Shown piece after piece: positions 1-2,974 of a DNA stretch of 5,333 bases; the stretch's first letter is position 1, and each line of letters opens with the position of its first letter. The notes under the pieces are model-generated. The model searched no databases, had not been told where the DNA came from, and saw only the letters and a list, made by a program, of their open reading frames with translations. The position numbers were made by a program, and so were the translations under genes. The stretch comes from a virus (lineage: Duplodnaviria > Heunggongvirae > Uroviricota > Caudoviricetes), in the IMG/VR virus record IMGVR_UViG_2548876863_000010, positions 1 to 5,333 of that record, one strand, 5' to 3'.

Positions 1-557
1 ATCCTGTTTACCTCTTTCTCAGGGAGTTTAGTCTCCAGGATTCCCGGGGCGGTTCATCGCGCCCTCAACAATGAGTTTTGTGATGCGGTGCCTGGTGCCT
101 CCAGGTGACGTTAACCAGTTAACAATTAACGCCGGATACAGAGAATCCACCCATAACACTGTTTTTGGTTTTAACTGTTCCGCGTGCGCTTAGCCGCATT
201 CACCGCATCACAAAATTCACTTTAAAAAGGGCGGCAGAGCAGTCACGGAGTAAAACTGATACCGCCAAACGTCACCAGAAAATTGATAACAGAGGGCGTT
301 GCAGCGGGGTTGTCACTTAAGCGTATGGTCAACCTGACAACCCGGTGTCCTCAAGGGGAAGGAATAACCCCGCCATACTTACCGCCGCGCCATTTCGCGG
401 AGTGCCACAACCGGAAGCGCACGTTCGAAGAAATCTAACGACAAGCCTTCTAAGGGAAAGAGCTTCGCCGTACGCTTTCGCGTTATGCCCTGACTTTTCA
501 GGGAAATATCCTTTCAGTAAACTGTCAGTACCGGATTCTTATCCGTGTCCGGCGCAC

Positions 558-827: not shown

Positions 828-1478
828 TTACCAGTCAATCCAGAGTGGACCGTGTTCAGCGTAAATATAACTGTACACATCCAGATTATATTTGTGGTCT
901 GTTAAGAACAGGCCGCAAATACATGCCGAAGCTTCCAGTGCAGCGGCTCTGTTACTGAATAACCATGTAGCAACATTCCAGCGTTTTTCTGCATCCCAGT
1001 CTTTCTCAAGGCCTGATACCATGAAGAAACCGTTAGTGTTGCCATCAAATAATTCTGTTTCCAAATTTTTAAGCAATGCCTGATGGACTCTTGCCAGGTA
1101 TTCCGCCGGAATTTCGCCACGAATTCTGATGAGATTGTCATAAACAAACATGTTCCCCGCATATGGCGATTTTTCTTTCTTGTTTTTTAAACCAGCATCA
1201 TGAGCAAACTGATCAATTTCTTCTTCCGTTGGTTTCGTATTGATGTTTTGCGCTGTCGTTTCTGCAATTTTATTTGCCACACTCTCTGAGTCGTGTTTAT
1301 TTATAGACGCACAGAAATACAATCCGGTAAACGCATCGCGCACATTACGAGCCATATTATCAGTGTCTTTTTTCGTTACCGATTCCAATTCAAGTTCGTT
1401 CAGACGATGACGAAGTGTGTGTGCTGCAATCTCCTGGATTGAAGGAGGTAAATCTTTAAATTCCATCGTCAACCTCAT
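828..1478 (-). CDS. Hypothetical protein, 216 aa (212 aa if started at internal ATG 1466..1464); no recognisable domain
   Basis: Longest ORF in an AT-rich block. The internal ATG (codon 5) has GAGG 6 nt upstream. The first ATG overlaps the TGA stop of the upstream 50-aa ORF by 1 nt, suggesting translational coupling. Charged, soluble-looking, non-repetitive sequence with no Walker, HxH or HTH motif that I can see. Confidence 0.7.
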   Translation of the reverse strand: MRLTMEFKDLPPSIQEIAAHTLRHRLNELELESVTKKDTDNMARNVRDAFTGLYFCASINKHDSESVANKIAETTAQNINTKPTEEEIDQFAHDAGLKNKKEKSPYAGNMFVYDNLIRIRGEIPAEYLARVHQALLKNLETELFDGNTNGFFMVSGLEKDWDAEKRWNVATWLFSNRAAALEASACICGLFLTDHKYNLDVYSYIYAEHGPLWIDW

Positions 1479-1630
1479 CAGTCAGTGTTTCTGGCTAACC
1501 AGCGACGCGCGCCAGCTTCAGTTTTAAACGTTTTGCTTTTGGTATACGTCATCGCGGTGAACGTACCGTCCTGGTTGGGGAACACGCCACATACCAGAGA
1601 TTCGTTGTTGCCAAGATTGAGCGTATCCAT
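1478..1630 (-). CDS. Small conserved prophage protein, 50 aa (MDTLNLGNNESLVCGVFPNQDGTFTAMTYTKSKTFKTEAGARRWLARNTD); possibly YdaF-like
   Basis: Not in the ORF track because it is under 60 aa. ATG at 1630..1628 is preceded by GAGG at 6-nt spacing; stop TGA at 1480..1478. It is the first gene behind the PL-like promoter. The resemblance to the ~50-aa YdaF/DUF1391 prophage family is recalled from memory and unverified. Confidence 0.55.
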   Translation of the reverse strand: MDTLNLGNNESLVCGVFPNQDGTFTAMTYTKSKTFKTEAGARRWLARNTD

Positions 1631-1703: not shown

Positions 1704-1732
1704 ATTGTTCTCTTAAGATGAACATATGTCAA
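1704..1732 (-). promoter_or_regulatory. PL-like early-left promoter with embedded inverted-repeat operator candidate
   Basis: On the minus strand: TTGACA (1732..1727), 17-nt spacer, AACAAT (1709..1704). The spacer contains TGTTC-N9-GAACA (1724..1706). The module is about 80 percent identical to the PR-like module at 2234-2262. Confidence 0.45.
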
Positions 1733-1753: not shown

Positions 1754-1785
1754 AAAAAAAACCGCCTTCCGGCGGTATTGTTTTG
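1754..1785 (-). terminator. Rho-independent terminator downstream of the repressor gene (hairpin flanked by A-run and T-rich tract, so possibly bidirectional)
   Basis: CCGCC (1762-1766), loop TTCC, GGCGG (1771-1775). On the minus strand the hairpin is followed by 8 T (complement of the A-run 1754-1761), 22 nt past the repressor stop. On the + strand it is followed by TATTGTTTTG. Confidence 0.65.
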
Positions 1786-1797
1786 TAAAATAAAGAA

Positions 1798-2187
1798 TTA
1801 TTTTTGTCGCGTTATTGGGTCAACGTATTCTGAGTAAAATTCGGTCAGTTTTTGAAGGCGCATTTGAAAAGCTGCCAGCATATTTCTACGCTCTACAGGT
1901 GGCAGGTTTCTGTAAACATCAAGCAGGGCTTTCTCATCATCATCAAGCGCCTCTCTGTTTGTATCTTCTTTTCCTGTCAGTAGCCAGGAAAGGGAAACAT
2001 TTGTCGCTTCTGCAATTTTGGCTGCGGAATCTTTACTGATTGTCCCTCTTTTTTTCCAGGCGTTGACTGATGAGCGTCCTACACCAGCGATGCGCGCTAA
2101 ATCTGAACCGCTTAAATGATGCTGTTGCGAGATCGTATCTAACCTTTCTGCCAGCGGGGTGTCGTATTGCTTTTTTCTCATGTCCAT
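1798..2187 (-). CDS. Prophage repressor, DicA-like XRE-family HTH protein without a peptidase S24 domain (129 aa)
   Basis: HTH segment LSGSDLARIAGVGRSSVNAWKKRG...NVSLSWLLTG. The short acidic/helical C-terminal tail resembles the DicA architecture (from memory). Divergent from the cro-like gene. No SD; TATAAT sits 6 nt upstream of the ATG. Confidence 0.85.
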   Translation of the reverse strand: MDMRKKQYDTPLAERLDTISQQHHLSGSDLARIAGVGRSSVNAWKKRGTISKDSAAKIAEATNVSLSWLLTGKEDTNREALDDDEKALLDVYRNLPPVERRNMLAAFQMRLQKLTEFYSEYVDPITRQK

Positions 2188-2193
2188 TTAGCA

Positions 2194-2222
2194 ATTATAA
2201 CCGTTCAGTGAACACTAACAAT
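2194..2222 (-). promoter_or_regulatory. Repressor maintenance promoter (PRM-like), likely producing a leaderless mRNA
   Basis: On the minus strand: TATAAT at 2199..2194, then 6 nt (TGCTAA), then ATG at 2187..2185. A weak -35 candidate TTGTTA lies around 2221..2216. The palindrome GTTCAgTGAAC (2203-2213) sits in the spacer. Confidence 0.45.
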
Positions 2223-2233
2223 TCCTCGTAGTG

Positions 2234-2262
2234 TTGACTTATGTTCTCTTTAAGTGAACAAT
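2234..2262 (+). promoter_or_regulatory. PR-like early-right promoter with embedded inverted-repeat operator candidate
   Basis: TTGACT (2234-2239), 17-nt spacer, AACAAT (2257-2262). The spacer contains TGTTC-N9-GAACA (2242-2260). GGAGG at 2281-2285 precedes the cro-like ATG at 2290. Confidence 0.5.
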
Positions 2263-2289
2263 GTTGTGGCTGATTGAATTGGAGGTTGT

Positions 2290-2565
2290 ATGACAGCATT
2301 GGACAAGGCAATAAAGATTGCTGGTGGTATTCGTCCGCTAGGGCGTGCAATAGGGGCTTGGCCGTCTCAAATACACAAATGGGCAAATGAATACAATGGT
2401 CGAGTGCCGACAGGGGAGCGGGTTCGTCAAATTTATATTGCAACTGGGGTGACTCCTCATGAATTGCGACCAGATTTATATCCGAATCCAACCGACGGGT
2501 TGCCTGCTGGAGATAAGGCTAACACACAAAATACACCGGAGTTGATTCATGAAAATCAAGCATGA
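2290..2565 (+). CDS. Cro-like / YdaS-family HTH DNA-binding protein (91 aa)
   Basis: First gene rightward of the repressor. Strong SD (GGAGG). HTH-like segment ...GGIRPLGRAIGAWPSQIHKWAN.... Overlaps the next gene by 17 nt. Confidence 0.85.
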   Translation: MTALDKAIKIAGGIRPLGRAIGAWPSQIHKWANEYNGRVPTGERVRQIYIATGVTPHELRPDLYPNPTDGLPAGDKANTQNTPELIHENQA

Positions 2566-2974
2566 ACACATCCGCATGGCGATGAATGCTTGGGCGTATC
2601 CGGACGGTGAGAAAGTACCTGCAGCTGAAATAGCTCGGGCTTATTTCGAACTGGGGATGACGTTCCCGGAACTTTACGACGACAGCCATCCGGAAGCCCT
2701 GGCCCGTAATACCCAGAAAATTTTCCGCTGGGTGGAGAAGGACACGTCTGATGCTATTGAAAAAATTCAGGCGTTGTTACCGGCGATCGAAAAGGCGATG
2801 CCGCCTTTGCTGGTGGCCCGTATGCGCAGTCACAGTTCTGAGTATTACCGGGAGATTGTCGAACGGCGAGATCGGCTGGTGAAGGATGTCGATGATTTTG
2901 TTGCGTCAGCGGTCGTTTTATATGACCAGATAAATCGCGGCGGCCCGGCAGGGAATGCTGTGGTGATGCACTAA
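2549..2974 (+). CDS. YdaT-like prophage regulatory protein (cII-position protein; historically annotated as a toxin domain), 141 aa
   Basis: N-terminus MKIKHEHI... is typical of YdaT-family proteins in Rac-type prophages (from memory). GGAG lies 7 nt upstream. Operon position is between the cro-like gene and the replication gene. Confidence 0.8.
   Translation: MKIKHEHIRMAMNAWAYPDGEKVPAAEIARAYFELGMTFPELYDDSHPEALARNTQKIFRWVEKDTSDAIEKIQALLPAIEKAMPPLLVARMRSHSSEYYREIVERRDRLVKDVDDFVASAVVLYDQINRGGPAGNAVVMH

Follow-up and report, generated by a model that had tools for sequence, protein, structure and literature searches.

The DNA analysed here, called the window throughout, is a stretch of 5333 nt representing the immunity region (switch) of a lambdoid E. 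coli O157:H7 prophage of the Qin/DicA type. The segment used for searching, positions 1650-2600, was 100% identical to chromosomal prophage DNA of E. coli O157:H7, and the annotated O157:H7 prophage record contains an integrase and an excisionase beside an ompW remnant, together with exonuclease, dicB, hokD, RusA and Q-like genes. The module was present in 82 of 5426 complete E. coli genomes, and there was no named reference strain among the 40 records listed. A megablast search against a phage collection gave matches that were confined to the ydaS/ydaT junction. The main features are the following:

229..280, minus strand: full-length gene for the DicF sRNA (Rfam RF00039; score 76.7 bits, gathering score 48 bits)
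828..1478, minus strand: ORF of 216 aa, matched end to end by phage family phrog_2151 (E 1.9e-147)
1478..1630: DUF1391 gene of the leftward operon
1704..1732, minus strand: PL-like promoter TTGACA-17-AACAAT from the promoter scan, with an operator-like site at 1706-1724 in its spacer
1761..1776, both strands: bidirectional hairpin resembling an intrinsic terminator, from the terminator scan, just past the repressor stop codon
1798..2187, minus strand: repressor gene, 129 aa (PF07022, PF01381, PHROG repressor families)
2281-2285, plus strand: GGAGG Shine-Dalgarno sequence of the cro-like gene (anti-SD duplex -10.0 kcal/mol)
2290-2565, plus strand: cro-like gene of the YdaS family (PF15943, phrog_35)
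2549-2974, plus strand: cII-like gene of the YdaT family (Pfam and PHROG matches)

Rightward beyond the cII-like gene lie an O-like gene and then a DnaC/P-like gene. Since DicF is full-length, the leftward operon is of the dicBF type, as in Qin. The PL-like promoter is predicted to drive this DUF1391...DicF operon as the equivalent of dicBp, and the operon is presumably repressed there by the repressor of the window. The hairpin at 1761-1776 is GC-rich, is flanked by an A-run and a T-run and lies between the repressor gene and the PL-like promoter. In the O157:H7 record (L001), PGAP annotates the region of the 216-aa ORF as two shorter hypothetical genes, at 11220-11525 (plus strand) and 11512-11817 (minus strand); the 100% identity of this record concerns 1650-2600 only, and the region either differs from the window or is mis-annotated. 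The ribosome-binding region of the cro-like gene, GGAGGTTGTATG (2281-2292), is identical to that of lambda cro (L032, approximately 928-944), and the two proteins belong to different families.

The initial annotation had called the gene a repressor, and the protein matches bear out that the ORF at 1798..2187 encodes a phage repressor: the product matched Pfam Phage_CI_repr (PF07022, E 1.8e-12), HTH_3 (PF01381) and the PHROG transcriptional-repressor families, and the gene is divergent from the cro-like gene. The Pfam matches were to HTH families only, with no S24 peptidase or self-cleavage domain. BLASTP aligned 110 aa of it with DicA of E. coli K-12 (26% identity, E 5e-7), the alignment extending into the C-terminal helical LLxxF/YxxLP region; it is a DicA-like short HTH protein, distantly homologous to DicA. 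A single PDB match, to the HTH of the CI repressor 2fjr (E 0.004), covered only residues 17-82 and is uninformative on expression. DicA has been grouped with the short non-cleavable Gifsy repressors under antirepressor control (Lemire et al. PMC3121763; Ragunathan and Vanderpool PMC10448788), proteins that are inactivated by small antirepressors (Rem, GfoA) and not by RecA-stimulated cleavage (PMC10448788, PMC3121763). An antirepressor gene would not fit into the window, which is too short.

The predicted repressor promoter and the absence of a Shine-Dalgarno sequence

The intergenic region between the repressor and the cro-like gene measures 102 bp and carries promoters on both strands. On the minus strand the sequence reads ...TTGTTAgtgttcactgaacggtTATAATtgctaaATGgacATGagaaaaaag, in the order TTGTTA(2221..2216)-16 nt-TATAAT(2199..2194)-tgctaa-ATG(2187..2185)-GAC-ATG(2181..2179), with these elements:

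2216..2221, minus strand: -35 hexamer TTGTTA, four of six consensus matches, followed by a 16-nt spacer
2194..2199, minus strand: -10 hexamer TATAAT, perfect consensus, from the promoter scan
2188..2193, minus strand: 6-nt discriminator tgctaa, between the -10 hexamer and the ATG
2185..2187, minus strand: ATG start codon (M1); A2187, the seventh nucleotide after the -10 hexamer, is the predicted +1
2179..2181, minus strand: second in-frame ATG (M3), two codons downstream, the start chosen by PGAP for the 127-aa form

The initial annotation had proposed that the repressor is expressed as a leaderless mRNA, on the grounds that its ATG has no Shine-Dalgarno sequence, that a perfect TATAAT precedes it by exactly 6 nt, and that lambda cI is made from PRM in the same way. 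All three observations were reproduced. No Shine-Dalgarno sequence was found at positions -20 to -3 of the repressor, where the best anti-SD duplex reached -2.4 kcal/mol, against -10.0 kcal/mol at the cro-like gene; the hexamer at 2199..2194 is separated from the ATG at 2187..2185 by the six nucleotides 2193..2188; and lambda presents the same -10-N6-ATG order (TAGATT-taacgt-ATG).

The pair TTGTTA-16-TATAAT makes 10 of the 12 consensus matches and was the sole promoter-like site that the scan returned on the minus strand of the intergenic region. By itself, the scan did not reach significance, with 3 sites in 1.1 kb where 1.7 were expected. Counting both strands, the 5333-nt window contains four perfect copies of TATAAT, the expectation being 1.39. 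At a frequency of approximately 1-4 x 10^-4 per position, a chance hit at the exact offset from the ATG is unlikely. Among close alleles from E. coli and Lelliottia, the -10 hexamer and its spacing are invariant, and the discriminator (tgctaa, tgccaa or tgctgg) is constant in length. The first 32 nt of the predicted repressor mRNA are unpaired in both the MFE and the centroid folds, and the fold is no more stable than those of shuffled sequences (z +1.04).

The full explanation that we favor, with a probability of about 80%, is that the repressor mRNA from the PRM-like promoter is leaderless and starts at the first AUG, which we offer as a strong prediction. In a lysogen, the sigma-70 RNA polymerase would use TTGTTA-16-TATAAT (2221..2194, minus strand) and would begin the transcript at A2187, the seventh nucleotide past the -10 hexamer and the A of the repressor's first AUG, or no more than 1-2 nt away from A2187. 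As the base preceding A2187 is a purine, A2188 or A2189 could also serve as the start, with a leader of 1-2 nt as the result. The terminator-like hairpin would leave this transcript monocistronic, at about 430 nt, with neither a 5' UTR nor a Shine-Dalgarno sequence, and its unstructured 5'-terminal AUG would be translated by the route established for lambda cI, giving the 129-aa protein MDMRKK... In this account the start nucleotide, the use of M1 and the mode of translation are predictions; what was observed is the arrangement of the sequence, the missing Shine-Dalgarno sequence, the conservation in the family and the accessible 5' end of the predicted fold. Our full-text literature searches found no transcription-start mapping for the repressor gene of the window or for its Salmonella homologues. 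Published EHEC maps of transcription starts are unlikely to cover the module, because only the 82 genomes of 5426 mentioned above carry it.

Conservation across the repressor family

By means of a genome scan and exact-protein look-ups, we assembled 24 loci encoding relatives of the repressor at approximately 30-80% identity, from Escherichia, Salmonella, Enterobacter, Cronobacter, Lelliottia, Raoultella, Erwinia, Serratia, Chimaeribacter, Sodalis, Xenorhabdus and Phlomobacter. A -10-like hexamer was defined as one with at least five of six matches to TATAAT, including A2 and T6 (TAnnnT). In 22 of the 24 loci, the first ATG of the ORF had such a hexamer upstream, at a distance of 6 nt in 14 loci and of 7 nt in 8 loci, and the two exceptions present weaker hexamers, TAAACT and TAATAT or TTTAAT, in the same place. 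Over the 115 nt upstream, the background amounted to 22 of 2664 positions (0.8% per position), so that the histogram of offsets is essentially one spike at 6-7. The naive binomial probability is approximately 1e-37, a value that treats related loci as independent and thus overstates their independence. When the upstream 100 nt were clustered at 70% identity, 14 of the 16 clusters, which have different operators, carried -10-N6/7-ATG. In all eight loci with the 7-nt spacing a pyrimidine directly precedes the A of the ATG, which would favor initiation on that A. The family showed further features: the start codon is ATG in 24/24 loci, the mean anti-SD duplex is -2.1 kcal/mol for the repressor genes against -5.4 for the adjacent cro-like genes, codons 2-11 have an A content of 47% against 29% in the remainder of the gene, and a TTGnnn -35 hexamer with a 16-nt spacer recurs in many loci.

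Two distant relatives from Pantoea (L014 and L015), which have no C-terminal domain, were left out of the family count. In both, the -10-like hexamer is TACTAT, some 23 nt from the ATG, and their repressors may be leadered; they would seem to form an exception, one that lies beyond the core family.

The same set of loci bears on which of the two ATGs is used. PGAP calls the 127-aa form (ATG2181) in most genomes and the 129-aa form (ATG2187) in KS-NP019 (loci compared: L033, L034 and L035), and both forms are abundant in the protein collection. Two PGAP starts for one gene are typical of a gene without a ribosome-binding site; the start is called inconsistently because gene callers that expect such a site cannot place it. 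The prevalence of the 127-aa call, and the many relatives that begin MKKK... in alignment with M3, would fit a situation in which transcription occurs as predicted and translation begins at ATG2181, after a 6-nt leader (AUGGAC). We consider this quite improbable. In the MKKKTY-type relatives that lack M1 and have only the M3 equivalent, the -10 hexamer is shifted along with the ATG, which remains 6-7 nt downstream of it (L023 and L024; in L023, TATAAT-tagtga-ATG), whereas the MNTKKK-type relatives have a Met at the M1 equivalent and none at M3. All the MDMRKK-type loci keep the -10 hexamer 6 nt from M1, PGAP itself calls the 129-aa form in KS-NP019, and neither ATG is preceded by a Shine-Dalgarno sequence. 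Moreover, in leaderless translation it is the 5'-terminal AUG that is reportedly recognised by ribosomes, a result attributed to Brock et al. 2008 (as cited in PMC8630535), and this would argue against a start at ATG2181. Because the -10 hexamer keeps its place relative to the first ATG in all the loci, M3 is disfavored, and M1 (2187) appears as the better-supported start. Among close alleles, codon 2 shows a synonymous change only (GAC to GAT).

Candidate operators of the switch and a probable establishment transcript

The PRM-like promoter forms part of a switch that includes the following elements:

2234..2262, plus strand: PR-like promoter TTGACT-17-AACAAT of the cro-like gene, from the promoter scan
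2242..2260: OR1-like 19-bp palindrome TGTTCTCTTTAAGTGAACA in the PR spacer (repeats D1 and I1)
2196..2214: OR3-like site with the octamer AGTGAACA, over the PRM spacer and overlapping the -10 hexamer (paired with the PR operator as direct repeat D4)
2229..2239: third AGTGAACA-like half-site, TAGTGTTGACT, flanked by the -35 hexamers of the two promoters (91% complementary to 2207-2217, inverted repeat I11)
2542..2559: exact YdaT (CII-equivalent) operator TTGATT-N6-AATCAA at the ydaS stop/ydaT start junction (1 match against 0.03 expected)

The predicted start of PR lies near 2269, 82 bp from A2187. A near copy of TGTTCTCTTTAAGTGAACA is found in the PL spacer (1706-1724), and the PL-like and PR-like promoter-operator modules as a whole (1704-1734 and 2232-2262) form a 31-nt inverted repeat, 84% complementary, with the AACAAT -10 hexamer and the spacer palindrome TGTTC-N9-GAACA in both. 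The OR3-like site and the PR (OR1-like) operator are 46 bp apart, and OR1 and OR3 of lambda are 47 bp apart. The OR1-like and OR3-like sites are candidate operators, to which binding is predicted from these repeats, and the half-site at 2229..2239 is a possible equivalent of OR2. The PRM-like promoter is back to back with PR, and its spacer and -10 hexamer lie under an operator-like site, through which it could be shut off by the repressor, by the Cro-like protein or by both, as at lambda OR3. The palindrome GTTCAcTGAAC in the PRM spacer was also considered as an operator and was rejected, since the Lelliottia locus, which is 74% identical, does not preserve its right arm; the element conserved in that comparison is TGTTCAC / AGTGAACA.

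The YdaT operator raises the question of a second source of repressor mRNA. The motif TTGATT-N6-AATCAA is that of YdaT (PMC9986795), and in CP-933P a promoter in the corresponding region, PRE933P, is activated by YdaT (PMC8630535). The YdaT protein of the window is nearly identical to that of CP-933P, as shown by primer matches and alignment. Homology with CP-933P begins abruptly at position 2538 of the window, and leftward of the operator the two prophages diverge in sequence; we read 2538 as the seam of a mosaic, where the immunity module meets a ydaT-O-P module that is shared. By analogy, the operator probably marks a PRE-like establishment promoter giving a leadered repressor transcript, and leadered repressor transcripts therefore probably exist too, as a counterpoint to the leaderless one. 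Such a transcript would still have no Shine-Dalgarno sequence before the repressor AUG.

That both transcripts are made as in lambda, a leaderless one from the PRM-like promoter and a long leadered one from the PRE-like promoter, translated without a Shine-Dalgarno sequence, has in our opinion about even chances. The operator, the near identity of the two YdaT proteins and the activity of PRE933P in CP-933P speak for it; against it, no -10/-35 pair for PRE was located in the window, the DNA on the left side of the operator is unlike that of CP-933P, and the prophage may be defective. This possibility complements the leaderless PRM-like transcript and does not exclude it.

A more radical alternative is that the TATAAT at 2199..2194 is not a working promoter, being a chance occurrence or part of an operator, and that the repressor is made only from an upstream, leadered transcript, arising at a YdaT-activated PRE-like promoter near 2540-2560 or at a promoter inside the cro-like gene and translated without a Shine-Dalgarno sequence by another route. 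This would agree with the exact YdaT operator at 2542-2559, with the activity of PRE933P when YdaT is expressed and with a single-locus promoter scan that is not significant by itself. However, it is difficult to account in any other way for a -10 hexamer at a fixed offset from the ATG in 14 of 16 sequence clusters, in CP-933P and in lambda PRE coexists with a leaderless PRM and does not replace it, and a lysogen needs a maintenance promoter that is independent of cII. Exclusive expression from upstream is thus highly improbable, and we retain the leaderless transcript from the PRM-like promoter as the preferred explanation.

Comparison with mapped leaderless repressors

The -10-N6-ATG signature of the window is found in four repressors that have been experimentally mapped as leaderless, namely lambda cI (TAGATA-17-TAGATT-taacgt-ATG in the reference genome), PaaR2 of CP-933P (GATAAT-taccac-ATG), RacR of K-12 (GAATAT-taagca-ATG) and YmfK of K-12 (TTTAAT-ttcgtt-ATG), all of which start on the A of the ATG. 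In dicA of K-12, the -10 hexamer TAGCAT lies 9 nt from the ATG. For PaaR2, 5' RACE together with mass spectrometry and N-terminal sequencing (MQKKE) established that the mRNA has no leader (PMC8630535). In K-12, dRNA-seq identified five leaderless mRNAs in all, three of which correspond to the prophage repressors ymfK (0 nt), racR (0 nt) and dicA (3 nt) (PMC4681348); PracR3 was confirmed as leaderless by primer extension, and racR has two additional promoters upstream (PMC9638921).

The likeness to lambda extends beyond the -10 hexamer, the 6 nt, the ATG and the missing Shine-Dalgarno sequence. Both systems have a divergent PR back to back with PRM, the predicted starts lying 82 bp apart in the window and, when placed by the same rule, 83 bp apart in lambda; both have an operator or operator-like site that overlaps the PRM spacer and the -10 hexamer; and both repressors begin with A-rich, Lys-rich codons. 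In contrast, the repressor of the window has 129 aa and no C-terminal S24 self-cleavage domain, detectably resembles lambda CI only in its HTH class, and is associated with different operator sequences. The promoters also differ, TAGATA/TAGATT in lambda against TTGTTA and a perfect TATAAT here. Lambda PRM is a weak, CI-dependent promoter, and given its consensus -10 hexamer the PRM-like promoter of the window may depend less on activation.

The cryptic sister prophage CP-933P (Sp12) of O157:H7, with PaaR2 and PRM933P, shares with the window the layout repressor / ydaS-ydaT-O-P, the ydaT gene with its operator, and the O and P genes, and GATAAT-N6-ATG in PaaR2 is experimentally leaderless (PMC8630535). 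It differs in its cro-like gene and operators, so the two prophages are heteroimmune, and in that PaaR2 is co-transcribed with the paaA2-parE2 toxin-antitoxin pair, whereas the repressor gene of the window is followed by a terminator-like hairpin. PaaR2 was considered as a homologue of the repressor and discarded, since BLASTP gave no alignment; it is an analogue in the same genomic slot. DicA of Qin (K-12) is the distant homologue, with the same two-part architecture and the same leftward DUF1391...DicF operon, but its -10 hexamer is 9 nt from the ATG with a mapped 3-nt leader, against 6 nt and a predicted 0-nt leader in the window. RacR (Rac) and YmfK (e14) are prophage repressors with a mapped 0-nt leader and -10-N6-ATG. 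RacR is likewise paired with ydaS-ydaT; unlike the gene of the window it has two more promoters upstream, and only a short HTH match links the two proteins (E 3e-4).

A leaderless repressor in the window is well supported as a further example of a known design, not as a new kind. It would add a case to the concentration of E. coli leaderless mRNAs in repressors of prophages and other mobile elements, and it would correct and explain the inconsistency between the 127- and 129-aa annotations. In prophage annotation, the -10-N6/7-ATG signature of the family could be used as a predictor of leaderless repressor genes and of where they truly start. A wider proposal is that leaderless expression is an obligatory, selected feature of short DicA-like repressors across Enterobacterales, not an individual quirk, and that their YdaT-activated PRE-like transcript has a leader of approximately 350 nt without a Shine-Dalgarno sequence; we judge this generalization unlikely. 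With such a leader, establishment synthesis would need SD-independent internal initiation or processing to a 5'-terminal AUG. A leaderless maintenance message would imply low-level, SD-independent synthesis of the repressor, which, by analogy with lambda cI, may persist when canonical initiation is impaired, and this would bear on the stability of prophages with dicBF-type toxic genes in STEC.
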